A stretch of DNA of 64,000 nt from an uncultured SAR86 cluster bacterium (GTDB lineage Bacteria; Pseudomonadota; Gammaproteobacteria; Magnimaribacterales; TMED112), in NCBI GenBank assembly GCA_902579195.1, contig CACHFV010000001.1, positions 109,213 through 173,212 on the forward strand, in the 5' to 3' direction. Shown piece by piece: positions 18,495-63,010 of the stretch. The notes under the pieces are model-generated. The model was not told where the DNA came from, ran no database searches, and saw only the letters and a program-made list of their open reading frames with translations. The translations under genes and the position numbers were made by a program. Position 1 is the stretch's first letter; each line of letters begins with the position of its first letter.

Positions 18495-18575
18495 AGTGCA
18501 AAGGGGAGGCTATGCCTGAGATCTTTTTAGGAACCCTTTGAACCTGAACCATACAATGATGGCGGAGGAATTGCA
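18495..18575 (+). promoter_or_regulatory. TPP (THI-box) riboswitch
   Basis: tgcaa-AGGGGAGGCtatGCCTGAGA...ACCCTTTGAACCTGA-ACCATacaATGATGG-CGGAGGAA-ttgca matches the THI element cores CUGAGA, ACCCUUUGAACCUGA and GCG-AGGGA. P1 (18497..18501 with 18571..18575) closes onto the SD and the start codon. Confidence 0.85.
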
Positions 18576-21233: not shown

Positions 21234-22029
21234 TATTGAGAATTTTCTTAACACAGCTGAAAAAGATATTGCTTTGATAAAAACTATTCAGAAAACAAAA
21301 TTTTCAGAGGTTTATGAGTGCAGGTTGGATGGTAAGGATGCCATTCTTAAAATTAAGACAGACTATACCTTTGAAAACGACATTGGCATTGAAGAAATAA
21401 TTGTTAATCGACTTCACAAACTTAATTTAACACCGCGAATTTTACATGCTGATACACAAAAAAAAGTAGTGATATACGAAAAAGTGATTGGTTCTGATCT
21501 GAGCACAGTTCCTAAAGCAAATATTATCTCTAAATGCGCAAAGCAACTAAAGAAACTTCACAACTCAAATATTGTTTGTGACGATTGTAGTTCATTCAAG
21601 AGTAAAATTAAGAAATATGAGCATGCCATTGCTCAAAAAACGTCAAACTTATTCTATCGAAGTGCTTTCATGTTTATTTATAAGTTAGCAGCAAGGGATA
21701 AACATCAGGTGTTTTGTCATAATGATTTGAACTTATCCAACATAATGTATTCAGATGATATTTTTTTCATTGATTGGGATTATGCCGGTTTCAATCATCC
21801 TTATTTTGACCTCGCTCTACTTTTTAATGCTATGAATTTGACAAGCAATGAAGAATATAACTTTTTAAGCATCTATGCCGATCAGGAAAATAATATTGAT
21901 CACGATTTATTAAAAGAATATAAAAAAATGTCTTTGTACGTCGAATACTTATGGATTGTTGCAACATCTAGCCAAGAAAACCCCAAATACGCCACGCGTT
22001 TTGATGAGTTAACCACACTTCTTCGATAG
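21226..22029 (+). CDS. Choline/aminoglycoside-kinase-fold phosphotransferase, thiamine-kinase-like
   Basis: Brenner-type catalytic loop FCHNDLNLSNIM and metal-binding IDWDYAGFN. The size matches ThiK (about 270 aa). It overlaps the pnuC-like gene by 8 nt. Confidence 0.7.
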   Translation: MSNIENFLNTAEKDIALIKTIQKTKFSEVYECRLDGKDAILKIKTDYTFENDIGIEEIIVNRLHKLNLTPRILHADTQKKVVIYEKVIGSDLSTVPKANIISKCAKQLKKLHNSNIVCDDCSSFKSKIKKYEHAIAQKTSNLFYRSAFMFIYKLAARDKHQVFCHNDLNLSNIMYSDDIFFIDWDYAGFNHPYFDLALLFNAMNLTSNEEYNFLSIYADQENNIDHDLLKEYKKMSLYVEYLWIVATSSQENPKYATRFDELTTLLR

Positions 22030-31601: not shown

Positions 31602-32381
31602 ATGAATCTAGAAGTCTTTTTTATCGATTCGTTCACCAACAAAGTTTTTGGCGGTAATCCTGCAGGAGTAATTTTTCATTCTGATCCAATTGATGAGAAC
31701 GTAATGCAAGCAATTGCAGCTGAAAATAATTTATCAGAAACAGCATTCATCAATACTCAAAATGACAACCAAATAAGATTTTTTACCCCAGAGCTGGAAG
31801 TTGATTTATGTGGTCATGCAACATTGGCTTCTGCCTTTGTGTTCTTTAACTATCTTGATAAATCCCATGATCAAATTACTTTCTCATCTAAGAGAGGCCA
31901 ATTGATTGCAGATAGAGCAGAAAAAGGGATTAAGCTGACCTTGCCCAAAGATAACCCAGAGCCCTATGCAGAGATAGATTTATTTTCAAACATGCTTGGT
32001 TGCAAGGCGCTTGAGGTATGTAGAGGAATTGATGACTTTATGGTCTTAGTTGGAAGTGAAAATGATGTTAAAGATATGAAACCAGATTTTAGTGAGATAA
32101 GTAAGCTGGATTCGCGTGGTTTAATTGTTACAGCTGATGGATTAGATGTTGATTTTGTTTCAAGATGGTTTGGCCCGCAAACAGGAGTTGATGAAGATCC
32201 AGTAACTGGGTCTGCCCACACCTTGCTGGCTCCATATTGGGGCAAAAAACTTGGCAAAAATACAATGAATGCAAAACAGCTATCCAAAAGAGGCGGTTTT
32301 TTAATTTGTGAAGTGAAGGGTAAAGCAGTTGAAATAACAGGACAGGCTAAACTTTACTTAAGAGGCTCAATTGAGCTTTGA
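31602..32381 (+). CDS. PhzF-family isomerase
   Basis: FIDSFTNKVFGGNPAGV, LSETAF, FTPELEVDLCGHATLA and DPVTGSAH. Confidence 0.85.
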   Translation: MNLEVFFIDSFTNKVFGGNPAGVIFHSDPIDENVMQAIAAENNLSETAFINTQNDNQIRFFTPELEVDLCGHATLASAFVFFNYLDKSHDQITFSSKRGQLIADRAEKGIKLTLPKDNPEPYAEIDLFSNMLGCKALEVCRGIDDFMVLVGSENDVKDMKPDFSEISKLDSRGLIVTADGLDVDFVSRWFGPQTGVDEDPVTGSAHTLLAPYWGKKLGKNTMNAKQLSKRGGFLICEVKGKAVEITGQAKLYLRGSIEL

Positions 32382-33482
32382 AAGATCTTCTTTTAAGTAG
32401 ATACGTTGACTCTCAATAAGATTTTCAATCCTTGATTTTATATTTTCGTTGGGCCTTTCTTTTAAAGCTTCAATAAAAAAATAAATAGCACTAAGTGAAT
32501 CACCTATTGTTAAAAAATTGATTCCACACAGATAATTTTTTACAGAGCTACCAGTAAACTCGCATAAGTTCTGGTTGGTTGCAAAAGAATTTTCTGCGTA
32601 AGTTATTTGTAACAGCCTCTCCCTGGCACTATTTTTTATTTCCCATGGCACCGAATCAAATGAAAGTAGTTGTTTAAAGTTTGTCTTTGCTCCAGCATAA
32701 TTTTGCTTATGAAATTGAGCCTCACCAATCCAGTAGTATTTTAGTTCATATCTACCATGTAAATCTCTTGCATAGTCTTCCAATAAGACCCATTGCTGTT
32801 TTCTAGTGAACTGATCTATCTTTCTTAAAATTCTGGAGGGATAATCAGCAAAAGCTCTTCCTTCTAAATCAATCTCGTACGTAAATTTATGTGGAACATT
32901 GTTAACACGAATAGGTTCTCCATTTATGACTAATGGGTAATATTCTAATTTTTTTGCAGCAGCTAAAGTTGAATTATCAAACCGCTTGCAATCCTCAAAT
33001 CTATTGCCTTGTTCATTAAAGCAAACAGAGGAGACCTTTTTAACATTATCTACTTTGCCATTTTCCAAAATATCAAAACTGACTATCACTTCTCCCCAAT
33101 AGCCAAATTCTAGTGCGGAAGATGGGTAAACTGGTTGTTCTTTATACTTCGCTTTATATCCAATACCTACAAGTCTTGATAACCACATTAATTTAGGTAT
33201 ATCACAATCATCATGAATAATGCATTCAGGGTGAGGTTTAATCTTTTTTTGAAAGATTTCTGTTAATAGCTGAATATATTCATCATCCAAGTATTCCTTT
33301 AGCTCGTCTTTTTTATATGTGAAGCCTTGTGCATTTTTTGAGTAAAATAAACTGGATTCATAATCATACAAATTAAAATCAGCTGTTAAACCTTGTTCAG
33401 GCGGTGATGTAATTGCTTGTGGTTTTAGATTTGGACTAATAAAAAGCAATGAAATAATTAGCAATTTGATTATCTTGTTCAT
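32367..33482 (-). CDS. Secreted protein with a TonB C-terminal-like domain and a helical-repeat tail
   Basis: Signal peptide. The central segment [36 protein letters not shown] fits the TonB_C pattern. There is no N-terminal anchor or Pro-rich rod, so it is not a canonical TonB. Confidence 0.5.
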
Positions 33483-39484: not shown

Positions 39485-41950
39485 ATGATGAGCATACTAA
39501 GAATAATCTTGCTTTTACTCCAGTCATCTTTTTTGATCATTGGGGCAATTTATTTCTTTTTATTGAAGGATTTGCCAAAAGTAGAAACAATTACTGAGAT
39601 AAAACTTACCAACCCAATGAGAATTTATGCGGCTGATGAACAATTAATTGGTCTGTTTGGGACTGAAAAAAGACAAATAGTTAAATATGCTGATATTCCT
39701 AAAAACCTAAAAAATGCAATTATTGCTGCTGAAGATGGCGGCTTTTATGACCATTCAGGAGTTGAAATTACAAGTTTGATGCGAGGCTTTTATGGTGAGA
39801 TTACCGGTAGATCACTTGGGGGCGGTGGCACAATCACAATGCAGGTTGTCAGAAACTATGTCTTATCTTTCGAAAGAACATACATCAGAAAATTAAGAGA
39901 AATTATTTTAGCTTGGCAGTTAGAAGATCATCTTACCAAACAAGAAATATTTGAGCTCTATTTTAATAAAGCATTTTTAGGCAATCGAAATTATGGTTTT
40001 GCAGCTGCCTATCAATATTATTTCGGGAAAGATTTTTCAGAAGCATCAATTGCAGAATCTGCACTTCTTGCTGGTGTGTTGCAAACACCATCACGGGTGA
40101 ATCCCGTTCGAAATCCACTAGCTTCCAAAAAAAGGAGAGATGTAATTCTTGGCAGAATGCTTAGAAATAAATTTATTACAGATGCCGAATACAATTCAGC
40201 ACGAGAAGTAATAGTTACTGGTGAAAGTTTCGGTCCAAAGATTAATATTGCAGCAGAATACCTTGCAGAAAAAATAAGAATCGAAGTTATCAATAGATTT
40301 GGCTTAAAAGCCTATGAAGATGGCATGAATATATACACAACTCTTGATTCTAGAATGCAACAAGATGCTGTTGAAGCAGTAAGATCAAACTTATATAAAT
40401 ACGATCGAAGGTATGGGTGGAAAAATGAAGAAGTTTATAAGGATTTCAACTTCTCAATCTTAAGAAGTGTTTTTTTAGAAGATGGTTTATTTATAATCCC
40501 TGCACGTGTTAACTATGAGGATGCTAAAGATGAAAATATCAATAAATTGCAGAATCTACTTTCCGCTAATGTAGAAATAGATGGATATGTTCCAAGCCTA
40601 GTTATTGGAATCTCAAATAACAGTGTCACGGCTTTGGATGCTAAATTAAATATCCATACAGTAAATTGGAACAAAGGTGACTACGAATGGGCTAGAACTT
40701 TAAATTCCGATGGAACCAGAACACCAAAACCAGAAGGTTTTCTAGACTTTATTGAATTAGGAAGCCTGGTATACATTAGCAACAATCAGCAAGATAACAT
40801 AATCACTCAACTTCCAAGTGTTGAAGGAGCTTTTGTTGCAATAGATGGCCTAACTGGTGACCTGAAAGCCTATGTTGGCGGTTTTGATTTTAGCAAATCA
40901 AAGTTTGATAGAGCCTCAAATTCGCGCTTATTGCCAGGATCAAGTATAAAACCTTTTATTTATGGGTGTGCGTTTGAAAATGAACTCAATCCATCTTCAA
41001 TTTTTATTGATGGTCCGATCATCTTTGAAGACAGCAAGCTTGAAGGAATATGGCGTCCAAGAAATAACTCTGGAGAATTCTATGGCCCAATAAGGCTAAG
41101 AGAAGCTCTAATTCAGTCGCTTAATCTTGTCTCCATTAAGCTTGTTCAATCTATTGGTTTAAAAGACACACTTAACTGTTTTAAAAAATACAATTTTGAC
41201 GAGCAAATGCTTACAAATGACTTGTCGATTGCTTTAGGAACAGGGACTATCAACCCTTTTAAAGCTGCACAGCAATTTTCAATGCTTGTAAATAATGGCC
41301 AGATTTCAGAAATCACATACATCGATCGTATTGAAGATATCAATGGCAATATTATTTATGACCCACAAAAAAAGTATTCAACCAAATATGAAACTTATAC
41401 CCAACTTAGCTTTCCTTGGATAAATAATGAGAAATTCGATTATCTGAATAAGCCTTTAATTGCAGTTGGTCTTGAAGAACCTATGCAAGCGATGGATCCA
41501 AGGGTAGCTTTTATGCTCTCAGATATATTAAAAGAGGCTCTTCAAAGAAATATTACGCGCAGACAGCTAGCCAGTGATATAACGAATATGGGAGGCAAAA
41601 CTGGCACTACAAATGACGCGACAAGCACATGGTTTTCAGGTTATGCATCAAATATAGTCGCTTCAGCTTGGGTTGGTAAAGACGATGGCACATCACTTGG
41701 TGATAATGAATTTGGAAGCACCAATGCTTTACCAATTTGGTTAGATTTTATGAATTCTTCGAAAGATAAACTTTCTAATTACTCGATCGATGTTCCTGAG
41801 GGAGTGGCGGCTATACGAGTGAATAAAGAAACTGGCCAAGTTTCTCAAACATTTAGTGATAGCTACTTTGAATTCTTTTTAGAAGAGAATGTTTCAGATC
41901 TTCTTAATTCAGAACGAAACAGAAGCAACTTGGAAGATATAATCGATTAG
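39485..41950 (+). CDS. mrcA: Penicillin-binding protein 1A (bifunctional glycosyltransferase/transpeptidase)
   Basis: GT51 motifs AAEDGGFYDHSG and TITMQV. Transpeptidase motifs SSIKP and KTGTTND. Confidence 0.9.
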   Translation: MMSILRIILLLLQSSFLIIGAIYFFLLKDLPKVETITEIKLTNPMRIYAADEQLIGLFGTEKRQIVKYADIPKNLKNAIIAAEDGGFYDHSGVEITSLMRGFYGEITGRSLGGGGTITMQVVRNYVLSFERTYIRKLREIILAWQLEDHLTKQEIFELYFNKAFLGNRNYGFAAAYQYYFGKDFSEASIAESALLAGVLQTPSRVNPVRNPLASKKRRDVILGRMLRNKFITDAEYNSAREVIVTGESFGPKINIAAEYLAEKIRIEVINRFGLKAYEDGMNIYTTLDSRMQQDAVEAVRSNLYKYDRRYGWKNEEVYKDFNFSILRSVFLEDGLFIIPARVNYEDAKDENINKLQNLLSANVEIDGYVPSLVIGISNNSVTALDAKLNIHTVNWNKGDYEWARTLNSDGTRTPKPEGFLDFIELGSLVYISNNQQDNIITQLPSVEGAFVAIDGLTGDLKAYVGGFDFSKSKFDRASNSRLLPGSSIKPFIYGCAFENELNPSSIFIDGPIIFEDSKLEGIWRPRNNSGEFYGPIRLREALIQSLNLVSIKLVQSIGLKDTLNCFKKYNFDEQMLTNDLSIALGTGTINPFKAAQQFSMLVNNGQISEITYIDRIEDINGNIIYDPQKKYSTKYETYTQLSFPWINNEKFDYLNKPLIAVGLEEPMQAMDPRVAFMLSDILKEALQRNITRRQLASDITNMGGKTGTTNDATSTWFSGYASNIVASAWVGKDDGTSLGDNEFGSTNALPIWLDFMNSSKDKLSNYSIDVPEGVAAIRVNKETGQVSQTFSDSYFEFFLEENVSDLLNSERNRSNLEDIID

Positions 41951-43308
41951 TGATAATTTAGATCAAGGTCCGGAAATACTTTCCTCAAATTTTGCTCAAA
42001 CCTTTCTTGGATTAAAAGCATACTTTCCTCGGTATCGCCCTCAAATCGAAGCACAAACTTAGGACTTGTATTGGATGCTCTTAAAAGACCCCAAGCTCCG
42101 TCAATAGTTACTCTTACACCATCGATAGTATTTATTTTTGCATCTGCGAAATCCATTTCACGCAAAAAAGTTTCAATCATTTGAAATTTTATTTCATCTT
42201 TAACATTAAGGTTAAGTTCCGGAGTTGAGTATGTCTTTGGAAAGTGGTCTTTAATATCAGATGCTGACTTACCACTGTCGGCAATTATTTTAGATAGCAT
42301 TGCTCCTGAAAAAATTGCATCGTCAAACCCATACCATTCATGATTGATAAATAAATGCCCTGACATTTCTCCACCCAGGATGGCATTAGTATTTTTTATA
42401 GTATTTTTAATATTAAAATGCCCAGTTTTCTCCATTATTGGCTCCCCACCATTTTGTTCTATCATTTTTCCTAATTCATCTGAACATTTCACATCAAAAA
42501 CCACTGGTCCTTTAGTTTGTTTTAGGTAATATTCAGCAAGCATCATAATAATATGGTCAGAAAGAACAAAATCGCCATTATTTGTAATCAAGCCAACTCT
42601 ATCGCCATCTCCATCGAACGCTAAGCCTAAATCGGCATTAGTTTCTGCAATTTTGGATTTTATTTGCACAAGGTTTTTTTCTTTGCTTGGGTCAGGGTGG
42701 TGATTTGGGAAGTTTCCATCAGGTTCTTGATTTATAGATATAGTTTCATGTCCTAGTGCTGTAAAAGTTTTATGGGCAAGAATGCCAGCTGCACCATTGC
42801 CGCTATCTAAAATAATCTTTAATTTTTTTGAAGTTGAGCTTTTGGACACAACTTCATGGATGTATTGGTCTTCAAAACTAATATTATCTATATCTGCTTC
42901 ATTAGTTGCAGATGATTCGACCTTTTTAAAATAATTGAGTATATCGAGCCCTGAAACTGGGCCTCCATCAAGCACTATTTTTAATCCATTGTCATCTTTT
43001 GGATTGTGGCTTCCTGTAATCATGACACCATGGCTAGTTGAGCCAACATTTGTTGCGTAATAAACCATAGGGGTAGGCACCAATCCAAGATTAAGAACTT
43101 TTATGCCTGCACTATTTATCCCAACGCAAAGATCAGTAAAAATTCTTTGGCATGAGAGTCTGCTATCGTGACCAATATATATTGCATCAGAGCCACTATC
43201 TCTTACTTTTTTGCCAAGAACAAACCCAATTTTTAAAAGGACATCAGGAGTTAAGTCTTGTTCAGCATTACCTCGGATATCATAAGCACGGAAGATATTT
43301 TTGTTCAT
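41947..43308 (-). CDS. Phosphomannomutase/phosphoglucomutase
   Basis: Active-site loop TGSHNPKDDNG, metal loop FDGDGDR, and GEMSGH. Confidence 0.9.
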   Translation of the reverse strand: MNKNIFRAYDIRGNAEQDLTPDVLLKIGFVLGKKVRDSGSDAIYIGHDSRLSCQRIFTDLCVGINSAGIKVLNLGLVPTPMVYYATNVGSTSHGVMITGSHNPKDDNGLKIVLDGGPVSGLDILNYFKKVESSATNEADIDNISFEDQYIHEVVSKSSTSKKLKIILDSGNGAAGILAHKTFTALGHETISINQEPDGNFPNHHPDPSKEKNLVQIKSKIAETNADLGLAFDGDGDRVGLITNNGDFVLSDHIIMMLAEYYLKQTKGPVVFDVKCSDELGKMIEQNGGEPIMEKTGHFNIKNTIKNTNAILGGEMSGHLFINHEWYGFDDAIFSGAMLSKIIADSGKSASDIKDHFPKTYSTPELNLNVKDEIKFQMIETFLREMDFADAKINTIDGVRVTIDGAWGLLRASNTSPKFVLRFEGDTEESMLLIQERFEQNLRKVFPDLDLNYH

Positions 43309-43350
43309 ATAAATTTTAAATAGATAGTTAAAACAATTATACTACGCACT

Positions 43351-44259
43351 ATGTCAAATATTTATTGGTTAAACGGAAAATATGTACAAAAAGAGGACGC
43401 TTACTTAAGCCCTCTGACACATACACTTCATTATGGTCTTGGTGCTTTTGAAGGCGTAAGGTCTTATGAAGCAAAAAATGGTGAAGTAAATATATTTAGA
43501 CTAAAAGAACATACTGAAAGACTTTTTGAATCCGCAAAAATCATTAATGTTCCAATTGAATTTTCATTTGATGAAGTAATGGCTGCACAGCTGGGCGTAA
43601 TATCAAAATCAGGTTTAAAAGATGCCTACATAAGACCACTAATTTATCTTAATGATGAGAAGCTTGGGCTTGATATTGTTGGTATGAAGTCGCACTTAAT
43701 GGTTTCATGTTGGGAGTGGCCATCAGTATTTGGAGCAGAAACATTGGAGAAAGGCATAGATGTGATGGTTTCTTCATTCACACGACAATTTCCAAATAGT
43801 TTGATGACAAAATCAAAAATTAGTGGAGGGTATGTAAATGGAATAATGGCTCATGATCAGGCAAAACGAAATGGCTATCACGAAGCGATTCTTTTAGATA
43901 CCACTGGTTTTGTTGCAGAAGGAAGTGGACAGAATATCTTCTTAATCAAAGATGGCATACTTTTCACCCCTGCGCTGACATGTTGTTTAAATGGCATAAC
44001 TCGAAGAACTGTAATAAAAATTGCTAAAGACCATAACATTGAGGTTATAGAAAGAAACATCACCAGAGATGAGCTTTACACAGCAGATGAGATCTTCTTT
44101 TGTGGGACAGCTGTAGAAGTAACACCAATAAGGTCTGTTGATAAAACTGAAGTTGGAAATGGTGCAAGAGGGGAAATCACAACCCTAATACAATCAAAAT
44201 ACCTTGATGCAGTAAGAGGCGAAGCAAAAGAATATTCTGACTGGCTGTCAAAAGTTTAA
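43351..44259 (+). CDS. ilvE: Branched-chain amino acid aminotransferase
   Basis: Fold-type IV PLP enzyme with YGLGAFEGVR and the EGSGQNIF and GITR motifs. Confidence 0.9.
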   Translation: MSNIYWLNGKYVQKEDAYLSPLTHTLHYGLGAFEGVRSYEAKNGEVNIFRLKEHTERLFESAKIINVPIEFSFDEVMAAQLGVISKSGLKDAYIRPLIYLNDEKLGLDIVGMKSHLMVSCWEWPSVFGAETLEKGIDVMVSSFTRQFPNSLMTKSKISGGYVNGIMAHDQAKRNGYHEAILLDTTGFVAEGSGQNIFLIKDGILFTPALTCCLNGITRRTVIKIAKDHNIEVIERNITRDELYTADEIFFCGTAVEVTPIRSVDKTEVGNGARGEITTLIQSKYLDAVRGEAKEYSDWLSKV

Positions 44260-45491
44260 TGTCAAAACTTAAATTGGCTTTTTTAGCCTATAGAAGTGAT
44301 CCATTCTCTGGTGGGCAAGGAATTTACCTAAAAAATGTAACCGAAGCTCTGCTTGAAAGAGGCCATCAGATTACCATTTACTCAGGAAGACCTCTGCCAG
44401 ATGTGTCAGATGACATTGATTTAGTTCCCATTGAAACGCCAGGGTATTTCGAATCATTTGATTTTAACCAAAGGCTTAAAAATTTCTTGAAACAACCTAA
44501 AACTTCAATGGAGATTCTAGACTTTTTTGAAACCTGTACTGGGACATTTACTGAGCCAATTTTTTTTGGCGACAGACTTTTAAAAAATGATCATTTTATT
44601 AAGCATCAGGACTCATTTGATATATTTCATGATAATCAATCGCTTAGCAATTATTCAAAGATAATTAACACTAGGCTTGTCACAACTTTGCATCATCCTA
44701 TTCATGTTGATAGAGATATAGATCTGGAAAACGAGCCTGGTTTTTTACGTAGATTCTCAATCAAGCGTTGGTATTCTTTTTTAAATTTTCAAAAAAAGAA
44801 TGTAAAGAATGTAAAAGCTATTGTATCGCCATCGGAATCATCAAAAAGAGACATTGTAAAATTTTTTGATTGTTCTGAAAGCAAAATTAAAGTCATATGG
44901 AATGGGGTTGATATAGCAACTTCGGAAAAAAACAATCAAAAAGAGTTTAAAAATCATTTTGTGACGATTGTAAGTGCTGATGTTCCGATGAAAAATTTGG
45001 AAAATATATTAAAGGCAATAGCAATTGCAAAAAAAGAGTTACCAAATATAAAGCTAACTGTTATTGGTGACATGCGTGAAAATAACAAAGACTTAATAAA
45101 TAATCTCAATATTGAATCAAACATTGATTACAAAGAAAAATTAAGCAGAGCAGAATTGTTAAGTTGCCTCAATGAAGCAGATATTGGAATTTCAGCATCT
45201 CTTTATGAGGGTTTTGGCTTTCCTCTTGTTGAGATGATATCAAGTGAGCTTCCAGTGCTTGTTGCAAACAAAGGTTCATTGCCAGAGCTTGCAGGAAATG
45301 CAGGAATTATTTTTGATGCCGAAAGAGCATCAAGTTTGGCAGAAAAAATAATAGAGCTTGCAAGCAATCATGATTTACGCAATGAGCTGAAGGATCAAAG
45401 CAAGCTTAGAAGAGGTGATTTTTTTGGTTGGGACGAGTATGCTATCAAGCTAGAAAGCCTTTACCAAGAAATAATCCATGGAAACTTTTAA
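44259..45491 (+). CDS. GT4-family (GT-B) glycosyltransferase
   Basis: N-terminal FSGGQGIY and C-terminal EGFGFPLVEM (E-x7-E). The start codon overlaps the ilvE stop by 1 nt. Confidence 0.85.
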   Translation: MSKLKLAFLAYRSDPFSGGQGIYLKNVTEALLERGHQITIYSGRPLPDVSDDIDLVPIETPGYFESFDFNQRLKNFLKQPKTSMEILDFFETCTGTFTEPIFFGDRLLKNDHFIKHQDSFDIFHDNQSLSNYSKIINTRLVTTLHHPIHVDRDIDLENEPGFLRRFSIKRWYSFLNFQKKNVKNVKAIVSPSESSKRDIVKFFDCSESKIKVIWNGVDIATSEKNNQKEFKNHFVTIVSADVPMKNLENILKAIAIAKKELPNIKLTVIGDMRENNKDLINNLNIESNIDYKEKLSRAELLSCLNEADIGISASLYEGFGFPLVEMISSELPVLVANKGSLPELAGNAGIIFDAERASSLAEKIIELASNHDLRNELKDQSKLRRGDFFGWDEYAIKLESLYQEIIHGNF

Positions 45492-46173
45492 TTTCAAGCA
45501 CATTAACCTAAAAAAAGTAAAAAACATGGTTGATATTGGTTGCGGGAATGGCCGGCACCTCAAATCTCTTGGGTTTAAATTAAAAGAAGCAAAAATTATA
45601 GGGATTGATCAATCTTTTGATGAAATAAGCTCTCTTCAAAGAGAATTTGATAACCACATTTGTAAAAATCAAAACAACTACATATTTTTAAATGAAGACG
45701 TCAGGCACATTGCATTGCCAAATAATTCCCAAGATCTAGTAATCTGCTCTGAGGTTTTAGAGCATGTCCCAAATTTTGAACAAGTTTTAAAAGAATGTCA
45801 CAGGATATTAAAACCAGGAGCAGTTTTGCTGATAAGTGTGCCAACTTATTTTCCTGAGAGCTTATGCTGGAAGTACTCAAAAAAATATATGCAAACACCT
45901 GGCGGCCATATCAGAATATTTAGGAATTCTTTTTTACTCGAAGAGTTCAGCAAGTTAAAACTAACACTATTTAAACATCACAGAGAGCACGCAATGCATT
46001 CGTTGTATTGGATTTTTAAAGCAAGAAATAATATGGAAGATAGTGACTTTTTGCGCTCCTTTCATGCGTTGTTGGTAAAGCAGATGTTTGGCCAAGCAAA
46101 ATTTTCATATACCTTAGAAAAAATCTTGAACCCTTTTTTTGGGAAATCAGAATGTTACTACCTTAGAAAATGA
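45478..46173 (+). CDS. Class I SAM-dependent methyltransferase
   Basis: Motif I VDIGCGNGRH and post-I/II DLVICSEVLEHV. It overlaps the glycosyltransferase gene by 14 nt. Confidence 0.8.
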   Translation: METFNFKHINLKKVKNMVDIGCGNGRHLKSLGFKLKEAKIIGIDQSFDEISSLQREFDNHICKNQNNYIFLNEDVRHIALPNNSQDLVICSEVLEHVPNFEQVLKECHRILKPGAVLLISVPTYFPESLCWKYSKKYMQTPGGHIRIFRNSFLLEEFSKLKLTLFKHHREHAMHSLYWIFKARNNMEDSDFLRSFHALLVKQMFGQAKFSYTLEKILNPFFGKSECYYLRK

Positions 46174-47135
46174 ACAAAGAAATATTCCTTCATGCTAAAG
46201 ACTGGATAATAACAAATCAAAAAAGTGATGGAGCTATATGCTGGGATAAACACGAAAAATTTGACGCTTGGGATCATTCAGAATGTCTGATAGCTTTAAC
46301 AATTTTTGAAGAGTGGGATCATTTTGATAAAGGTCTCGAATATATATTTAACAATATTAATAGCGAAGGATTAATAATCTCTGAAACTATTAAAGATAAA
46401 GTTACTAAGGATTATTATGAGCCTCACCATGCCGCGTATATCTTCTTGCCTCTTGTACAAAAATATATGATTGATGGCAATGCTTCTTACATTCAAAAAT
46501 ATCAAAAAAAATTAAAACTTATCTTTGAAGGAATGATGAAGTTTAAAGACAAAGATGGCTTATTTTTTTGGGCTTTAGATAAAAAGGGCTTTGCTGATAA
46601 TTCACTAATTACTGCTTCATGTTCGCTTGAACTCTCTCGAAGAGCATACTCTTTCCTGTGCACTAATGTTTTGCAGGAAGACGATCAAGAAAACACAAAC
46701 TTTTTTAACTTAGAAACATTTCATTCTTCTAGATTTAACCGAGATGGAATCGATAGAGCAAGATTTTCAATGGACTCTTATTATCCATATTTAATTGATT
46801 GTGGAGATGTAGACAATATCGATCAAGTGCTGAGTAAGTTTTATGTAGAAGGTTTAGGGATTAAATGTGTGGAGGAGGAGCCATGGGTAACAATTGCTGA
46901 GTCTTCAGAATGTTGTATCGCTTTGCACAAAGCAGGCAAAACAACAGAAGCAAAGAAAATATTCAATGATGTTATGCAGCATATGAATAAAGATGGAATA
47001 TTTCCCACCGGATATCAGTATAAGCTTGATATCAATTGGCCTGATGAACATTCCACATGGACTAATGCCGCTGCAATTATTGCTGCAGACTGTCTTTATG
47101 ATTTAACAAAGAAAGATAAAGCACTCTTACTGTAG
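46170..47135 (+). CDS. Hypothetical protein with prenyltransferase/terpene-cyclase-like QW-type repeats (alpha/alpha toroid?)
   Basis: It has recurring aromatic/DG repeats: NQKSDGAICW, FKDKDGLFFW and MNKDGIFPTGY. The fold call is weak. It has an ATGA overlap with the methyltransferase gene. Confidence 0.45.
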   Translation: MNKEIFLHAKDWIITNQKSDGAICWDKHEKFDAWDHSECLIALTIFEEWDHFDKGLEYIFNNINSEGLIISETIKDKVTKDYYEPHHAAYIFLPLVQKYMIDGNASYIQKYQKKLKLIFEGMMKFKDKDGLFFWALDKKGFADNSLITASCSLELSRRAYSFLCTNVLQEDDQENTNFFNLETFHSSRFNRDGIDRARFSMDSYYPYLIDCGDVDNIDQVLSKFYVEGLGIKCVEEEPWVTIAESSECCIALHKAGKTTEAKKIFNDVMQHMNKDGIFPTGYQYKLDINWPDEHSTWTNAAAIIAADCLYDLTKKDKALLL

Positions 47136-47732
47136 CTTTTGCAAAATAACTAAGCTCTCAACGCGCTTAAGCAATTCATACCCTTCATCAAGTGCTTTGA
47201 GATAAATTTCCCGAGGTGCTTGTCCTCCTTCCATTTCTGTATCGTAGATATCATGTATGGCTAAAATACCACCTTCTCTAATTTTTGGTGACCAGCAGAC
47301 ATAGTCATTTCTAGTAGATTCAAATGTATGACTGCCATCAATAAAAACAAAATCAATATCACTCTGTATTAATTTTGAAGCATTTTCGGATGTATCAATT
47401 ATTGGTTCAATGTGAGCGGCTAGGTTAAATTTTGAGATATTTTCTAAAAAAAGAGGCAAAGTATTCACTCTTTTCTCATCAAAGTCATAAATATCCTCAT
47501 CAAAATATTCTTCTCCATATTGTTGTTCTTCAGAGCCCTGGTGATGGTCTACACTAAATAATTTTGAGTTATTTTTTTTGCAAGCATAACCAAGATAACA
47601 GGCTGATTTTCCACAATATGAACCTATTTCAACGGCAATTCCACCAATGCAAAATTTTTCACAGAATTCAAAAAGCGCAGATCCCTCGCCCTCTGATAAA
47701 AAACCCTTTATATCCTTAAATTTTTCAATCAT
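47127..47732 (-). CDS. Class I SAM-dependent methyltransferase (Methyltransf_24-like)
   Basis: VEIGSYCGKSACYL, FIDGSH and ILAIHD. The track ORF extends to 47804. I prefer the internal Met (MIEKF...), which reduces the overlap with lpxL from 80 nt to 8 nt. Confidence 0.7.
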   Translation of the reverse strand: MIEKFKDIKGFLSEGEGSALFEFCEKFCIGGIAVEIGSYCGKSACYLGYACKKNNSKLFSVDHHQGSEEQQYGEEYFDEDIYDFDEKRVNTLPLFLENISKFNLAAHIEPIIDTSENASKLIQSDIDFVFIDGSHTFESTRNDYVCWSPKIREGGILAIHDIYDTEMEGGQAPREIYLKALDEGYELLKRVESLVILQKLQ

Positions 47733-48585
47733 ATATTGCTGGATTTTGTGATTTGAATCTCCTATGGTGCCAAAAATATTGCTCAGGATTGGCAAGCACA
47801 TCATCTTCTATTTTTTTATTTATTTCATCAGCAAATGATTGAGGAGAATCTGCTAGGTGACCAATATCTTCTATAGAAAATTTATAACCGTTTCCATCTC
47901 GATAAAAATCAAGATAAAAGAGTTTGCAGTTGGTTAATTTTTGTAGTGTATAGGGAACAGTAGTTGTAAGACAATCTTTTCCAAAAAATGTTGAGATCAC
48001 TGATCTTTTATTTCTATAGTCTTGATCAGGCCCGTACAAAACTGTTCTGCCTTTTTTCAGCCACTCTACAGTTTCATTTACTTTTTTGTTGCTTGCCAAA
48101 CCCTTCATAGCCTTTAGTCGCCCCGATAAGATAACTTTTTGCATTACTTGGCTGTTGTTAGGTCTCTCCATGCCATAAATATCAAAATTTTCACTGATCA
48201 GCCTAGCAGACATTTCTAAGAAAACATTATGTCTAAACAACATCAAAACACCTTCGCCCCTACTTTGTGCTTCTCTCAGAAGCGCTTCATTTTTAATCTC
48301 ACATTTGATGTTGTTTATTCTTTGCCCTGCGTTCCATGCAAGATTATTGTCATATAGCCCAAGCAGTGTCTCATCCCATGTCCTATTTATTAATGCTTGA
48401 CGCCATTCCTCAGGTTTATCATCGAAACAATAGTTAATATTTGCTTCAATAATTTTCCGTCTTTTCTTAAGAGGTGCGCTCAATGTATTCCAAACCTTAG
48501 AATTGCTCACAAAGAAAAATGATCTGGGCAATAGGCTCAAAAGCTTAGTAAAAGATATAATCAGTACAACAATGATATTATTCAT
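47725..48585 (-). CDS. lpxL: Lipid A biosynthesis (Kdo)2-lipid IVA acyltransferase (LpxL/HtrB family)
   Basis: N-terminal anchor, HX4E catalytic motif in LMLFRHNVFLEM, and the PDQD motif. Confidence 0.8.
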   Translation of the reverse strand: MNNIIVVLIISFTKLLSLLPRSFFFVSNSKVWNTLSAPLKKRRKIIEANINYCFDDKPEEWRQALINRTWDETLLGLYDNNLAWNAGQRINNIKCEIKNEALLREAQSRGEGVLMLFRHNVFLEMSARLISENFDIYGMERPNNSQVMQKVILSGRLKAMKGLASNKKVNETVEWLKKGRTVLYGPDQDYRNKRSVISTFFGKDCLTTTVPYTLQKLTNCKLFYLDFYRDGNGYKFSIEDIGHLADSPQSFADEINKKIEDDVLANPEQYFWHHRRFKSQNPAIYD

Positions 48586-48588
48586 CTA

Positions 48589-49806
48589 ATGCTTATTGTA
48601 TATAACTTAATTTATTTTTTATTTTTACCGCTACTAATCCTTAGGGATTTTTTTATCCTGAAAAGCCCAAAGATCAAAACAATTCTTATGAAATTAGGTT
48701 TCTATCTGGGCAGGTCAAACGAAAAAACAATTTGGTTGCATGGGGTAAGTCTTGGCGAAATAAAAATTTTAACGCCCTTAGCCAAAAGACTCTCACAGCA
48801 AGGGGAACAAGTAGTAGTCAGTTCAACCACAAACACTGGAAGGGACGAACTTGAGAAAGTTTTCAAAAATTCACAAATAAAAACCATTGTCTTTCCTTAC
48901 GATGTACCAATGATTTACAAGAAACTATGCGATCGTCTTAATATAGACAAGGTTATCTTGTTCGAAAGTGAATTTTGGCCAAATTTAGTATTTTCAATAC
49001 CTGAATCCACTAAACTCATCTCTCTTAATACATCTATTTCAGATAAATCATTCCAGCGTATGTCAGTGTTCAAGGCTTTCTCGGAGCAAGTATTCAAAAA
49101 ATTCAATAGATTTTTAGTTCAATCAGTAAGAGAAAAGGAAAGATTGGCTGCTTTTGGTGTTTCTAATATCGACATAATTGGAAACATAAAAGTGAATTCT
49201 GAAAATTACGTTACTAGAGAGGAGGTTAAAGAAAAAATAATAGCTAAACTAAATAGTAATAAATATACAGTCGTTTTAGGTAGCTCACATGATGGGGAAG
49301 AAGACTATGTAATCAATGCATTGCATGACCTTGACCTTGTGCTTGTAATTGCACCTCGACACCCTGAAAGAATTAATGGAGTAAAGAAATTATTGAAGGA
49401 CAAGGACATAGATTTTTCATTATTTTCAGAAGTAGAACATGGCCTTAAAGAGAAACTTATTATTTATGACGAAATAGGAAGCTTGTTCGAGCTTTATGCA
49501 GCTGCAGATTTGGCTGTAGTAGCAGGAAGCATAGTTTTTGATAAAGGTCATAACTTTATTGAACCAATTTATGCTGGAACACCATCCATTACTGGAATTA
49601 AGTTAAAAAATTATTCTGAGCTCAAGAAGCTTCTGTGTGACAAAGGGACAATAAAAACATTCAGCTCCCAAGCCCAACTTAGAGATTTAGTAAACACATA
49701 TGAAAACTCATTAGCCAGGCAAGAATATTTTCAAAACCAACACGCAGCATTAACTGATCTTTCCGGTTCTTACGATCAAGTTGTAGATATTTTAAATGAG
49801 TCATAA
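48589..49806 (+). CDS. waaA: 3-deoxy-D-manno-octulosonic acid transferase
   Basis: IWLHGVSLGEIK about 50 aa from the N-terminus, PRHPER, and a GT30 layout. Confidence 0.9.
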   Translation: MLIVYNLIYFLFLPLLILRDFFILKSPKIKTILMKLGFYLGRSNEKTIWLHGVSLGEIKILTPLAKRLSQQGEQVVVSSTTNTGRDELEKVFKNSQIKTIVFPYDVPMIYKKLCDRLNIDKVILFESEFWPNLVFSIPESTKLISLNTSISDKSFQRMSVFKAFSEQVFKKFNRFLVQSVREKERLAAFGVSNIDIIGNIKVNSENYVTREEVKEKIIAKLNSNKYTVVLGSSHDGEEDYVINALHDLDLVLVIAPRHPERINGVKKLLKDKDIDFSLFSEVEHGLKEKLIIYDEIGSLFELYAAADLAVVAGSIVFDKGHNFIEPIYAGTPSITGIKLKNYSELKKLLCDKGTIKTFSSQAQLRDLVNTYENSLARQEYFQNQHAALTDLSGSYDQVVDILNES

Positions 49807-50743
49807 ATATAACTTTCCAGCAATTTTCTTAATTGGACCAACTGCATCAGGGAAAACCAGTATTTCTTTGGAATTAGCAAAGCAGTTTCCTATTGAAGTG
49901 GTAAGTATTGATTCGGCTATGGTTTATAAAGATATGAATATTGGAACCTGCAAACCAAGCAAAGAAGATCTTAATGCAGTGCCTCACCATTTAATTGACA
50001 TAATTGAACCAAGTGAAACCTTTGATATTGGTGTTTTTATGCAATATGTTAACGAGGCTTTAATTAGAATCATTGAGAGAAATCAAATACCTATGCTGGT
50101 TGGTGGTTCTATGCTTTATCACTCTGTCTTGTTAAACGGTATTCATAATTTTCCGAGCGACAAATCAGTTCAAAAAGAAATTAAAGAAAAGAAAACTATA
50201 AAAGGCAAAGCTAGTCTTATTGAGGAACTAAAGCAAATAGATTTTGAGACATATAACAATATAGATCACAACAATAGTAGACGAGTTGAGCGAGCTCTTG
50301 AAATCATAAGAATTACTGGAAATAAATTATCCGATTTAAAAAATGAACCAAAACAGCTATTTTTTGATCAAAATAAATGCTTATTGCTTGGTATTGATGG
50401 CGATAAAAAGTCTTTAGACAGTAATGTTGAACAGAGATTAAGTAAAATTGTGCAACATGGATTCATTAAAGAACTTGATTATGTGAAAAACAAATATAAA
50501 TTAACATCAGATAGTCAGAGCATGAATGCTATAAATTACAAACAATTTTATGCTTGCCTCAATAACGAAATTACAATTGAGCAGGCCACAAATGATGCTT
50601 TAAGCTCGACTAGACAATTAGTTAAAACTCAAAAAACTTGGATGAAGAAGTTTTCATTAAACAGCTGTTTAAATACAGTGAATATCAAGGATGCAGAGGT
50701 TTTTTCTGGTACAATAAGCAAATACTTAAGGAGTAATATATGA
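49796..50743 (+). CDS. miaA: tRNA dimethylallyltransferase
   Basis: P-loop LIGPTASGKTS, SIDSAMVYKDMNIGTCKP and PHHLID. Confidence 0.9.
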   Translation: MSHKYNFPAIFLIGPTASGKTSISLELAKQFPIEVVSIDSAMVYKDMNIGTCKPSKEDLNAVPHHLIDIIEPSETFDIGVFMQYVNEALIRIIERNQIPMLVGGSMLYHSVLLNGIHNFPSDKSVQKEIKEKKTIKGKASLIEELKQIDFETYNNIDHNNSRRVERALEIIRITGNKLSDLKNEPKQLFFDQNKCLLLGIDGDKKSLDSNVEQRLSKIVQHGFIKELDYVKNKYKLTSDSQSMNAINYKQFYACLNNEITIEQATNDALSSTRQLVKTQKTWMKKFSLNSCLNTVNIKDAEVFSGTISKYLRSNI

Positions 50744-59958: not shown

Positions 59959-60028
59959 TGTTTTAAATGTTTGCTTACTACTTATATTGTTATATCATAA
60001 ATACATTAATTTCTTATGGGAGAGAGTT

Positions 60029-63010
60029 ATGAGATACATACTATTTCTACTAGCGTTATTAGTTAGTTCTTTTTCTTTTGCTCAAGATTCCGAATCAAAT
60101 GATTTAGAAAACATTGAGGAAGTCGTTACATCGGCTTTAAGAAGAGAAACAGCACTACAAGATACTGGTCTTGCTATTACAGTGATATCAGCTTCAGACA
60201 TTGAGTCAAAGAACTTGAAAGAGTTTTATGACTTTCAATTTAATGTACCAGGTGTTCTATTCCAAAAAGCAAACTTCTCAGGATCTGCTGTGCAGATTAG
60301 AGGTATGACATCTTATGCTACGGGTGGATCATTCTCAGGTATTGTAACTTACCGTGAAGATGATAATACCTTCGGTGGTGGGTCAATGGCTTTCAATGAG
60401 CTTTGGGATATTGACTCTTTTGAAGTTTTAAGAGGACCACAAGGAACACTTTATGGTGGTAACAACCCAGGCGGTACATTCATTATCAACTCAGTTGACC
60501 CAGGTGAAGAAGCTGATGGCTATATTAAAGCAGAATTTGGTGATCTTAACTTAGAAAGATACAGCGGTGCTGTAACTTTAAATCCTGGTGGCGCTCTCAG
60601 AACTAGAGTATCTTTTAGATCAACACAAAGAGATGGTTATGTAACTAATGAATTCAATGGTGAAGACATAGATAACAGGGCTTATCTTGGAGTTAGAGCT
60701 AAGACAATTTGGGATATTGATGACAACGCATCAGTTAAATTGACACTCAGACATAATGAGGAAAGCGACGCAAGATTAAGATCACAAAGAGCTGCGTGTA
60801 ACCCTAACCCGATAATGGGTTGTGATCAGTGGGGTGATTTTCCAACAATGGGAGCAACACATTCAGGGGTCACAGCTTTCTCAACGATAGACTATGTCAC
60901 CCTAAACTATCCAGGAGATGTGGTTTTACCAGATCTATCGTTAAGTTACAGTGATGGTGCCGACTTTTTTGAGGAACTAGATAGAACATCCCTCAGAACA
61001 AACCCAAGATTGCAAAGAGCTGACTGGAGTGCAAGTTTAAACTATGAGAGAGTGCTTAACGATGAGTGGACATTGAACTTCATTGCCGGTTACACCAAGC
61101 AAGAATACGCACACATGCAGAGCTTAAATGGATACGCATCAAATAGAGATTACAGAATGGGCCCTATCGTAACAGACATGCTGGGTTTAGGCATGAATGA
61201 GTACAATACTGATGAGTCGCTTGATAACTCAACATCAAACTATGATGATAATAAGTATGAGGTAAGGCTTACCTCAGATTCATTAACAACTGGTTTGTAT
61301 CATGAAATAAGCTCTGGATTTGTAGGTTATGAGGTTGTTACTCCTGGGTTTCATTATTACTCAGATGTTTCTAAAGGTCCAGTTGGTAACATGTATCCTG
61401 ATTTAGGTGGATACGGTGGTCTAGGTTTCTGGGGAACATACTTTGGTGCCTATGGTGGAAACCTTGAAGATAATATTGGTGACGCTATCTTAGCAGCAGC
61501 CATCGGTTACGTTGGTGCTGATCCAACTACTCCAGATCAAATTGCTGCTTTGATCCCAGATCTTTTAGCAGCAGGTCAATGTACAGACCCTAATGGTGAC
61601 TGTGTGGTGCTTGCACAACAACTTCTTATTGGAAATGCAGCTGCATTGCCACAAGTCTTAGGCCTTGGTTACCAAAATGGTGTAATGGCTTCGCATGATG
61701 AAGCAGCAAATGCAATCAGAACGATTGCTGCATTAGGAGCTAACTATGCCCTTGCTGGTGTGCCTTATCCAGTAACACCTGCGCTTCAGCCTTGGCAGCA
61801 ACGATTCCAGTCATGGAACAAATCATTTTTTGATACATGGGGTTTATTTGCAGAGTGGAATGGTGAAATTGATGAAAGAACCAGATGGACAGCTGGCGGT
61901 AGGTTCAACTTCATCACAAAGAGAGATGTAGTTTTAGACGGTGCAATGGATCTTACTGGTTCACTATCAGGTTACAACAGCACTGCAGCACTTGCTGCTG
62001 GCGTACCAAATGGATTCCCAGTTGTTCCTGAACTTGAAGAAGACTTTAACGAATTTACAGGTAGAGTTGTTGTTGATAGAAAGCTTGATGATGGAACTTT
62101 AGTTTATGCAAAATTTGATAGAGGTCTTAAATCTGGCGGTTTTAACCCAACAACAACTTCAGGCACTGATGGCATTTCAGATGGCGTAGTTTCATTAGTC
62201 GATCCTGAGATTCATAACGTTATAGAATTTGGAACCAAAGGTTCATACCTAGGTGGTTCTTTGACATTAAATACAGCTGCCTTCTTCAACAGTATTGGTG
62301 GCATGCAATTGCAAAAAATTGTTGGCTTATCATCACAGACTTTCAACACTGATGTGAATGTTATGGGTGTTGAAGTTGAAGCACTGTATGCGCCAAATAC
62401 CTATTCAAGATTTAATTTTGTTGGAGCCTATAATACGTCAGAGATAGATGGTTATTCAGATTATGATCCGAGAAACCCATATGGTGTTTCCTCAACTTCA
62501 GGAGGTGTTGATGTTTTACCTGGCGGTACTATAGTTGGTATGACAGATGTCGGCCCACTTTACAGATCTTTTGGTGGTATGTGTCAAGCTTACTTTAATG
62601 TATTGCTAAATATACCATGTGTTGATGATGGTCCAGTTATGCAAGACCTTTCAGGTCGTTCATTGCCAGCTGTGCCAGAGGTTTCATATTCAATTGGTGG
62701 TGAAGTTGATTTCATTAATGATGAAAGAGGTATGCTTACTGCAAGACTTGATTATATCTACAGAGGTGATATCTACTTATCTGTCTTCAACAATCCACAT
62801 GAATTTGTTGATGGTTTTGACTTCATGAACTTTGATTTAAGCTTCACCACACCAGATGGTAAGTGGGGCGTTGATCTCTATGTTCATAACTTAGAAGATA
62901 AAGAAGTGATTACCGGTGGTTTTGTGGGATCTGTACAAAATGGTGGTGGCTTTAACCTATTTATGCAGGAACCAATGAACGGAGGTATATCAATCATATA
63001 TAACTTCTAA
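60029..63010 (+). CDS. Large TonB-dependent receptor (993 aa from the preferred start) with an Ala/Gly/Leu-rich insertion
   Basis: The preferred ATG 60029 follows gggagagag. The signal peptide is MRYILFLLALLVSSFSFAQD and the TonB box is IEEVVTSAL. The plug is VQIRGM...FEVLRGPQGTLYGGNNPGGTFII and the C-terminus is GGISIIYNF. The track start 59987 looks like an upstream extension. Confidence 0.85.
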   Translation: MRYILFLLALLVSSFSFAQDSESNDLENIEEVVTSALRRETALQDTGLAITVISASDIESKNLKEFYDFQFNVPGVLFQKANFSGSAVQIRGMTSYATGGSFSGIVTYREDDNTFGGGSMAFNELWDIDSFEVLRGPQGTLYGGNNPGGTFIINSVDPGEEADGYIKAEFGDLNLERYSGAVTLNPGGALRTRVSFRSTQRDGYVTNEFNGEDIDNRAYLGVRAKTIWDIDDNASVKLTLRHNEESDARLRSQRAACNPNPIMGCDQWGDFPTMGATHSGVTAFSTIDYVTLNYPGDVVLPDLSLSYSDGADFFEELDRTSLRTNPRLQRADWSASLNYERVLNDEWTLNFIAGYTKQEYAHMQSLNGYASNRDYRMGPIVTDMLGLGMNEYNTDESLDNSTSNYDDNKYEVRLTSDSLTTGLYHEISSGFVGYEVVTPGFHYYSDVSKGPVGNMYPDLGGYGGLGFWGTYFGAYGGNLEDNIGDAILAAAIGYVGADPTTPDQIAALIPDLLAAGQCTDPNGDCVVLAQQLLIGNAAALPQVLGLGYQNGVMASHDEAANAIRTIAALGANYALAGVPYPVTPALQPWQQRFQSWNKSFFDTWGLFAEWNGEIDERTRWTAGGRFNFITKRDVVLDGAMDLTGSLSGYNSTAALAAGVPNGFPVVPELEEDFNEFTGRVVVDRKLDDGTLVYAKFDRGLKSGGFNPTTTSGTDGISDGVVSLVDPEIHNVIEFGTKGSYLGGSLTLNTAAFFNSIGGMQLQKIVGLSSQTFNTDVNVMGVEVEALYAPNTYSRFNFVGAYNTSEIDGYSDYDPRNPYGVSSTSGGVDVLPGGTIVGMTDVGPLYRSFGGMCQAYFNVLLNIPCVDDGPVMQDLSGRSLPAVPEVSYSIGGEVDFINDERGMLTARLDYIYRGDIYLSVFNNPHEFVDGFDFMNFDLSFTTPDGKWGVDLYVHNLEDKEVITGGFVGSVQNGGGFNLFMQEPMNGGISIIYNF

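Follow-up and report, generated by a model that had tools for sequence, protein, structure and literature searches.

Positions 44259-47732 of a 64,000-nucleotide stretch of DNA from an uncultured SAR86 cluster bacterium (the window, by which the whole of this stretch is meant) hold four tightly packed genes. On the plus strand, a gene for a GT4 glycosyltransferase of 410 residues (44259-45491; Pfam Glycos_transf_1 and Glyco_transf_4) is followed by one for a class I S-adenosylmethionine (SAM) methyltransferase of 231 residues (45478-46173; Methyltransf_11/23/25) and one for a 321-residue protein (46170-47135). A minus-strand gene for a Methyltransf_24 protein of 201 residues (47127-47732) converges on the third of these. 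The glycosyltransferase gene shares its last 14 nt (45478-45491) with the methyltransferase gene, an ATGA at 46170-46173 joins the methyltransferase gene to the open reading frame (ORF) of the 321-residue protein, and the tails of the two convergent genes overlap by 9 nt (47127-47135), with no meaningful hairpin at that junction. This set is very probably orthologous to the mycobacterial cluster for 3-O-methylmannose polysaccharide (MMP), whose proteins are named ManT, pMeT3, MmpH, and MeT1. The four products are predicted to be, in that order, an MMP-type alpha-(1->4)-mannosyltransferase, a 3-O-methyltransferase of the polymer, an (alpha/alpha)6-barrel endo-mannosidase, and a 1-O-methyltransferase that caps the reducing end.

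The MMP system has been characterized in Mycobacterium hassiacum and Mycobacterium smegmatis, and the M. hassiacum cluster consists of ManT (MHAS_04402), pMeT3 (04403), MmpH (04404), and MeT1 (04405) (Maranha et al. 2023, PMC9883506). The window carries the same four protein families in the same ManT-MeT3-MmpH order with a convergent MeT1 gene, and its four proteins appear soluble, as are the mycobacterial ones. When the PDB sequences are searched, the ManT-, MmpH-, and MeT1-like proteins match the M. hassiacum enzymes well above paralogous families, at identities of 31%, 28%, and 37%, respectively. The setting differs in its host, a low-GC Gram-negative marine gammaproteobacterium rather than an actinomycete, and in its links to flanking genes: the plus-strand genes form a chain with ilvE, and lpxL, which lies beside waaA, is chained to the MeT1-like gene. 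The original prediction, which had been made from the DNA letters, described a glycosyltransferase, methyltransferase, and repeat-protein trio with no assigned function; this description must be abandoned, as the genes correspond to the ManT/pMeT3/MmpH/MeT1 cluster of MMP biosynthesis (PMC9883506).

The glycosyltransferase finds its best PDB match in 7QSG, the ManT of M. hassiacum (E 1.4e-49, 172 bits, residues 4-406), and the next match stands at 1e-9. That next best match is MshA, with 41 bits, and the LPS-core (lipopolysaccharide-core) GT4 enzyme RfaG/WaaG reaches 29.5 bits. Published residues were mapped onto the window proteins through HMMER alignments, by which ManT G15, H142, K240, L291, E313, G314, F315, and E321 correspond to G18, H145, K245, L295, E317, G318, F319, and E325. 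Three of these positions in ManT, K240, E313, and E321, have been validated by mutagenesis (PMC9883506), and their equivalents in the window protein (K245, E317, and E325) are invariant or nearly so among homologs.

The 321-residue protein has no Pfam match at E<=0.01 and no NCBIfam match. A phmmer search of the PDB returns 7QSJ, the MmpH of M. hassiacum, at E 1e-24 over residues 15-312, and no other match below E 0.5. The AlphaFold2 model (pLDDT 94.4 and pTM 0.94, from a 52-sequence alignment) again has 7QSJ as its top Foldseek match (E 3e-23, TM score 0.90, root mean square deviation 1.9 A), and the next matches are (alpha/alpha)6 glycosidases at about 1e-7, which fill ranks 3-10. Judged by this model, the protein is an (alpha/alpha)6 toroid and a glycoside hydrolase homolog. 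A toroid fold had been raised as a question for this protein beforehand, and it was borne out, all of the top fold matches being (alpha/alpha)6 barrels. MmpH residues D47, W49, D50, T163, M215, Y219, E262, E265, and W315 are present in the window protein as D32, W34, D35, T148, M201, Y205, E244, E247, and W297. MmpH has demonstrated endo-mannosidase activity, and its D47, D50, and E262 have been validated by mutagenesis (PMC9883506). Across 52 diverse homologs, E244 and E247 are invariant, and D32 and D35 also vary little or not at all in the family. The inverting glycoside hydrolases of families GH15 and GH125 (clan GH-L) share the (alpha/alpha)6 fold, but their sequence similarity to the MmpH type is undetectable; the Arg/Asp pair of their -1 subsite is absent in MmpH, which is endo-acting on methylated alpha-1,4-mannan.

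For the convergent methyltransferase, the sole PDB match is M. hassiacum MeT1 (6G7D/6G80/6H40; E 7.9e-37), with its identity measured over 177 residues. Residues were compared here through family-wide invariants and pairwise alignment, and the motifs DHHxGSEExQ, FIDGxH, IHD, and GGQAP are common to MeT1 and 54 homologs of the window protein. In the characterized system, the substrates of MeT1 are restricted to fragments whose 1-OH, at the reducing end, is free (PMC9883506). A mechanical ORF list also offers an upstream ATG at 47804, which would give an alternative form of 225 residues overlapping lpxL by 80 nt; the 201-residue form that starts at 47732 is the one called by gene callers in three independent assemblies. 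Some Cellvibrionaceae loci (L010, L017, L035, L043, and L054, in the numbering of the loci compared below) have ManT, MeT3, and MmpH genes with no MeT1 homolog downstream within 8 kb (L017 and L035), about 4 kb (L010 and L043), or about 0.6 kb (L054).

The assignment of the middle methyltransferase depends on position and on matches to genes in the same position. Its gene lies between those for ManT and MmpH, exactly where MHAS_04403 lies, and orthologs in that position from Actinomycetota and from Alpha-, Gamma-, and Deltaproteobacteria match it at 110-169 bits, those of actinomycetes at 110-130 bits. No NCBIfam model exceeds 56 bits, and a search of the PDB, which holds no structure of pMeT3, gives generic matches only. 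The part of the protein that follows the Rossmann core is specific to the family and conserved, with H171, H174, W178, W179, and C182 among the retained residues. The protein is therefore predicted to be the pMeT3 counterpart.

The same genes are found together in widely separated bacteria. An exhaustive HMMER search that covered 1.84 billion cluster representatives assigns 462 clusters at 50% identity to the family of the 321-residue protein at E<=1e-3, and 191 at E<=1e-10. The exact protein occurs in 88 assembly blocks, and its close relatives belong to clusters of hundreds to more than 1000 member sequences. A scan of GTDB with one genome per species yielded at least 596 matching stretches, and the window proteins were searched against all ORFs of the matched loci. 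Among the best 80 stretches, the Gammaproteobacteria are represented by SAR86 and by the Cellvibrionales/Pseudomonadales families Halieaceae, Spongiibacteraceae, and Cellvibrionaceae. Caulobacteraceae, Desulfobacteraceae, Smithella, and Syntrophaceae also appear, together with many Actinomycetota such as Streptomyces, Dietzia, Modestobacter, Nocardiopsis, and Actinomadura. The cluster is also carried by Desulfobacterales.

Where enough upstream sequence is available, ManT, MeT3, and MmpH genes follow one another on the same strand in all 22 gammaproteobacterial and all 4 alphaproteobacterial loci. The same is true of essentially all Actinomycetota loci and of 6 of the 16 Deltaproteobacteria loci. 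In 19 of 23 gammaproteobacterial loci, a convergent MeT1 gene adjoins the set, and most Actinomycetota loci have MeT1 next to it or close by. Strict positional counts understate the Actinomycetota because of long stop-to-stop ORFs, and the per-locus listing is the better record for this group. The gene arrangement is not due to chance, because the same genes recur in the same order and orientation in four phylum-level lineages. The statement in the original prediction that such a set recurs in unrelated phyla is confirmed by their co-occurrence in the matched loci.

In a neighbor-joining tree of concatenated ManT, MeT3, and MmpH sequences, Actinomycetota, Deltaproteobacteria, Alphaproteobacteria, and Gammaproteobacteria are separate, and a SAR86 group lies next to the window. 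The GC content of the window's cluster equals that of its flanks. Horizontal transfer from Actinobacteria is unsupported, given a tree that follows taxonomy and this uniform GC content, and nothing points to a recent transfer. In the cultured gammaproteobacterium Microbulbifer sediminum (GCA_021729035.1), all four genes are present and overlap in the same way, away from waaA (JAJSAP010000005.1, 131507-144631); the encoded proteins share 34%, 36%, 28%, and 43% identity with those of the window. A different arrangement occurs in Desulfobacteraceae and other Deltaproteobacteria, where a lone MmpH homolog is found with no ManT or MeT3 gene within 8 kb (L005, L009, L012, L013, L016, L033, L038, L047, L053, L060, and L073). 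In L005, its neighbors are a MoxR/BatA-type cluster on the opposite strand and, downstream, genes for a hexapeptide-repeat acyltransferase and an OmpA-family protein.

The published gene survey covered mycobacteria and a few related actinobacteria only, and the paper does not mention Proteobacteria (PMC9883506). Our literature searches, which took in Proteobacteria, SAR86, and marine bacteria, turned up no report of the cluster or its polymer from outside Actinobacteria within the literature searched. Neither the chemistry nor the architecture of this pathway is new; what appears to be new is its host range.

In mycobacteria, MMP is a cytoplasmic chain of 11-14 units of alpha-(1->4)-linked 3-O-methylmannose with a 1-O-methyl aglycon, and it is made by a scheme termed 'self-recycling, partially conservative replication' (PMC9883506). 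By analogy, the ManT-like enzyme would extend short alpha-(1->4)-manno-oligosaccharide primers from a nucleotide sugar, which in mycobacteria is guanosine diphosphate mannose (GDP-mannose) (PMC9883506). The pMeT3-like enzyme would then O-methylate the added residues, and the MeT1-like enzyme would methylate the free anomeric hydroxyl at the reducing end. Finally, the MmpH-like endo-hydrolase would cut mature chains into defined primers that can be extended again. Such a pathway would yield a small polymethylated polysaccharide, soluble and cytoplasmic. Polymers of this type have been proposed to sequester fatty acyl-CoA or acyl chains in mycobacteria and to assist growth in the cold, and mycobacteria that lose MMP grow more slowly at 15 degrees C (PMC9883506). 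For the window, we infer from the mycobacterial precedent which sugar is used, how it is linked, where it is methylated, which nucleotide carries the donor sugar, and what the polymer does in a Gram-negative cell. On this basis, the product is likely a methylated mannan of the cytoplasm that is produced through recycling. The best explanation overall, and one that we consider probable, is a complete ortholog of the MMP cluster in a marine gammaproteobacterium.

Several observations weigh against this reading. One is that pMeT3 itself is only a putative 3-O-methyltransferase in M. hassiacum, without biochemical characterization (PMC9883506). Another concerns the sugar donor. ManT has been proposed to read the guanine of GDP-mannose through the L291 carbonyl and D293 (PMC9883506); the leucine is kept in the window protein, but D293 is replaced by R297, so the donor may differ. 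The position varies in all proteobacterial homologs, where it is R, K, T, H, or E, and also in a few Actinomycetota (Q, N, or V). Similarly, MmpH N101 and F102, which line an extra subsite, are H86 and H87 in the window protein and are variable elsewhere, and the exact substrate of the MmpH-like protein may differ from the mycobacterial one. In the 64-kb window, no GDP-mannose pyrophosphorylase (manC) was found, and the only sign of a GDP-mannose pathway is an algC-type mutase, which is weak evidence for a nearby supplier of mannose-1-phosphate. A last point is that several gammaproteobacterial lineages have the cluster next to waaA and chained to lpxL, an association that the model of a cytoplasmic polymer does not explain by itself.

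The chemistry of the product deserves further consideration. The same enzyme set might make a different polymer, distinguished by its donor nucleotide or sugar, its methylation, its length, or its acylation, in which case the window would encode a new variant of polymethylated polysaccharide rather than MMP proper. The changes from D293 to arginine and from N101/F102 to two histidines are consistent with this possibility, as is an identity of only 28-37% to the mycobacterial enzymes. So is the gene for a hexapeptide-repeat acyltransferase that follows the cluster in Microbulbifer sediminum and at many Deltaproteobacteria loci, which recalls the acetylated MMP mentioned for Streptomyces griseus (PMC9883506). 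Such a gene comes after the MmpH or MeT1 gene at 14 of 17 Deltaproteobacteria loci (for example, at 8989-9771 in L055, 9298-10017 in L005, and 7787-8509 in L084), and its product may acylate the polymer. Against a variant polymer, the window's own cluster contains no acyltransferase gene, all catalytic and most substrate-lining residues are kept, the set of four genes is complete, both methyltransferases included, and D293 may not decide specificity since it varies within Actinomycetota too. A variant polymer seems unlikely.

The association with envelope genes requires a description of the flanks. The plus-strand chain is headed by ilvE, a gene for a branched-chain aminotransferase (43351-44259; Aminotran_4; NF005146 at 400.9 bits, above its cut-off), and the sequence TAATG at 44257-44261 places base 44259 in both the ilvE stop and the glycosyltransferase start. 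Divergent from ilvE is a phosphomannomutase/phosphoglucomutase gene of the algC/pgm type on the minus strand (41947-43308; PGM_PMM_I-IV), and a promoter-like site at 43315-43343 lies within the 42-nt spacer between the two. On the other side, a gene of the lpxL/lpxP family for a lipid A late acyltransferase (47725-48585, minus strand; Lip_A_acyltrans, E 4e-42) is immediately upstream of the MeT1-like gene and chained to it, because the ATG of the latter at 47732 lies in ATGATTGA and overlaps the lpxL stop (47725-47727) by 8 nt. Next is the Kdo transferase gene waaA on the plus strand (48589-49806; Glycos_transf_N, E 2.7e-41; NF004389 at 235.8 bits, below its cut-off). As lpxL and waaA are divergent with a spacer of only 3 nt (48586-48588) between their start codons, both promoters must sit within the coding sequence of the neighboring gene. 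A scan of 41800-50000 for promoters and terminators was uninformative, with promoter-like sites below the level of shuffled sequences and terminator-like sites at chance.

The wider neighborhood is one of housekeeping genes, in the order aroK-aroB-hemE, mrcA, algC, ilvE, the cluster, lpxL, waaA, miaA, hflK, hflC, and purA. Overlaps of 1-14 nt between genes are frequent throughout the window, as fits a streamlined genome. The coordinates, overlaps, convergence, and lpxL/waaA neighbors given in the original prediction agree with the ORF map and with the junctions as read from the sequence, and its family assignments (Aminotran_4, GT4, Methyltransf_11, Methyltransf_24, Lip_A_acyltrans of the LpxL/LpxP family, and the Glycos_transf_N Kdo transferase) hold as well.

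These flanks are partly shared by other carriers. Of 26 gammaproteobacterial loci, 12 have waaA no more than 8 kb from the cluster, and these span both SAR86 and Cellvibrionales-type lineages. Single-cell genomes of SAR86 show the series algC-ilvE-ManT-MeT3-MmpH-MeT1-...-lpxL-waaA (L006, L008, L011, L021, and L068); the algC-ilvE-ManT arrangement is kept in the first three, and a gap of 1-3 kb precedes ManT in L021 and L068. The lpxL gene adjoins MeT1 in L001, L003, and L011 and lies within a few kb in the other SAR86 loci, and in the Cellvibrionales-type loci L023, L025, L031, L032, and L078 it is waaA that adjoins MeT1. Translational coupling of lpxL and the MeT1-like gene implies that they are co-expressed. 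Inherited synteny is nevertheless a sufficient explanation for the association with lpxL and waaA, because gammaproteobacterial carriers as distant as L031, L078, and the SAR86 loci have ilvE upstream and waaA downstream in common.

A more ambitious idea would give the association a function. Polymethylated polysaccharides might be a widespread bacterial device, and a SAR86-like methylmannan might be coupled to envelope lipids, with the lpxL-MeT1 operon providing an acyl-chain buffer or chaperone for late lipid A acylation or for cold adaptation. We regard this combination as rather improbable.

Very improbable is the proposal that the genes, together with lpxL and waaA, attach a methylated glycosyl unit to the LPS core, to an O-antigen, or to a glycan linked to a polyprenyl carrier. 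The overlap of the lpxL stop with the MeT1-like start and the proximity of waaA noted above are what make this proposal attractive. In addition, Escherichia coli O8/O9a WbdA-D constitute a polymannose O-antigen system with terminal methylation. Such methylated polymannose systems, which include that of Oligotropha carboxidovorans, resemble the window in having GT4-type mannosyltransferases and a SAM methyltransferase near LPS genes in a Gram-negative host. However, these systems build on undecaprenyl carriers and depend on a ligase and an ABC exporter, and the window has nothing of the kind. They are not known to have an endo-hydrolase or a 1-O-methyltransferase. Homopolymers of 3-O-methylmannose do occur as the O-antigen of O. 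carboxidovorans (PMC9883506).

The proteins themselves argue against any action on a lipid-linked glycan. The four have no membrane segment or signal peptide, with a maximal 19-residue hydropathy of at most 1.33, compared with about 2 for the N-terminal membrane anchors of LpxL and WaaA. The annotated window contains no gene for a ligase, a flippase, or an ABC exporter, and none recurs in related loci, as judged from an all-against-all clustering of neighboring ORFs that is partly confounded by antisense shadow ORFs at high-GC loci and was used only for transporter recurrence. The glycosyltransferase is far closer to ManT than to RfaG/WaaG, by the scores given above. A MeT1-type enzyme requires a free reducing end, which is incompatible with a lipid-linked glycan, and a cytoplasmic endo-hydrolase would likewise have no role on a glycan that is anchored to lipid.

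The distribution of the cluster also speaks against LPS as the target. Complete orthologous clusters are present in Actinomycetota, which lack LPS, and those of Alphaproteobacteria, Deltaproteobacteria, and Microbulbifer are not beside waaA or lpxL; the ilvE and waaA flanks shared by distant gammaproteobacterial carriers are those expected of inherited synteny. The features of an LPS core or O-antigen system, namely membrane or lipid-acceptor enzymes, an exporter, a ligase, and hosts restricted to those with LPS, are not those of this cluster. The methylated glycosyl decoration of the LPS core or of a polyprenyl carrier that had originally been suggested is thus unlikely, considering LPS-free Actinomycetota hosts, proteins free of membrane segments, and the lack of any flippase or transporter that recurs beside the cluster. 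The product is most likely a cytoplasmic polymethylated mannan and not a decoration of LPS or of a lipid carrier.

The remaining alternative is that the 321-residue protein is an enzyme of the prenyltransferase or terpene-cyclase type acting on an isoprenoid lipid, which the glycosyltransferase and methyltransferases then modify. The repeats that suggested this are real. A QW-like Q-x3-G-x3-W motif occurs four times (residues 16-25, 62-70, 125-134, and 272-282), the three peptides singled out in the original prediction are found at the first, third, and fourth of these places (16-25, 125-134, and 272-282), and the family retains Q17/G21, Q63/G67, G130/W134, and G276/G281. The protein shares with QW-repeat proteins (PF00432, PF13243, and PF13249) both the alpha/alpha toroid and a short Q...G...W motif after alternate helices. 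Some family members bear the NCBI name 'prenyltransferase/squalene oxidase repeat-containing protein', and for a few there is a precomputed match to PF13249, which accounts for the prenyltransferase-like label in the original prediction. A class II terpene synthase is among the remote Foldseek matches, but only at rank 17 (TM score 0.55, with E of about 4e-6 for the best terpene synthase) and far below the 0.90 of MmpH, with glycosidases at ranks 3-10. With no Pfam prenyltransferase or cyclase match at E<=0.01, no DxDD or DDxxD motif, hydrolase acid/base residues that are kept in the window and invariant across the family, and a characterized homolog that is a proven endo-mannosidase (PMC9883506), a prenyltransferase or cyclase identity is hardly credible and is effectively refuted by residue conservation and the fold match to MmpH.

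Other parts of the window hold features unrelated to the cluster. A tRNA gene (18375-18448) is followed by a thiamine pyrophosphate (TPP) riboswitch at 18492-18587 (56 bits, just above its gathering score), a TonB-dependent receptor ORF (18575-20662), a PnuC/NMN_transporter-family gene (20652-21233), and a gene for an APH/choline-kinase-type kinase (21226-22029). The region 18375-22029 looks like a riboswitch-controlled operon for the uptake and salvage of thiamine or a precursor. Because the ORF start at 18575 overlaps the riboswitch, the true start is probably further downstream. Elsewhere, a plus-strand ORF of 995 residues (9683-12670) has no Pfam match even at E 1e-3 and a GC content of about 0.41-0.42, compared with about 0.35 for the window. 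It has a lipoprotein-type N-terminus (…LFVAAC-GGGSS), a long (PAPT/PEPT)n linker, and two internal repeats of about 400 residues (…GGLVI[SN]GLATQNNCN…GTAACTA[ED]GEG…), and a TonB-dependent receptor gene (12814-15339) follows it directly downstream. At least four such receptor genes are present in the 64 kb (this one and those at 18575-20662, 24244-26364, and 59987-63010), and a TonB_C protein gene lies at 32367-33482. This abundance is typical of SAR86-type marine heterotrophs, and the 3.4-kb MMP-type cluster has been kept in the same compact genome.

Polymers of the MMP type have been presented as a speciality of mycobacteria and some of their actinomycete relatives and have been tied to mycobacterial fatty-acid metabolism (MMP literature including PMC9883506). 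A complete cluster with conserved residues in an abundant, streamlined marine gammaproteobacterium alters this actinomycete-only picture. The finding also corrects a systematic gap in annotation: Pfam and NCBIfam both lack an MmpH model, and database names are inconsistent. Close relatives of the 321-residue protein are labeled 'hypothetical protein' and other relatives 'prenyltransferase', and JGI names some family members 'MMP endo-(1,4)-3-O-methyl-alpha-D-mannosidase'.

Given that the cluster is present in Gammaproteobacteria, Caulobacteraceae, and Desulfobacterales, the role of the polymer cannot depend on mycolic acids or on other features specific to actinomycetes. Cultured Gram-negative carriers such as Microbulbifer sediminum exist in which this role can be studied. 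Methyl sugars have been reported in marine dissolved organic matter of high molecular weight (PMC4817625), and it may be speculated that methylated mannans from abundant plankton could be one source of them.

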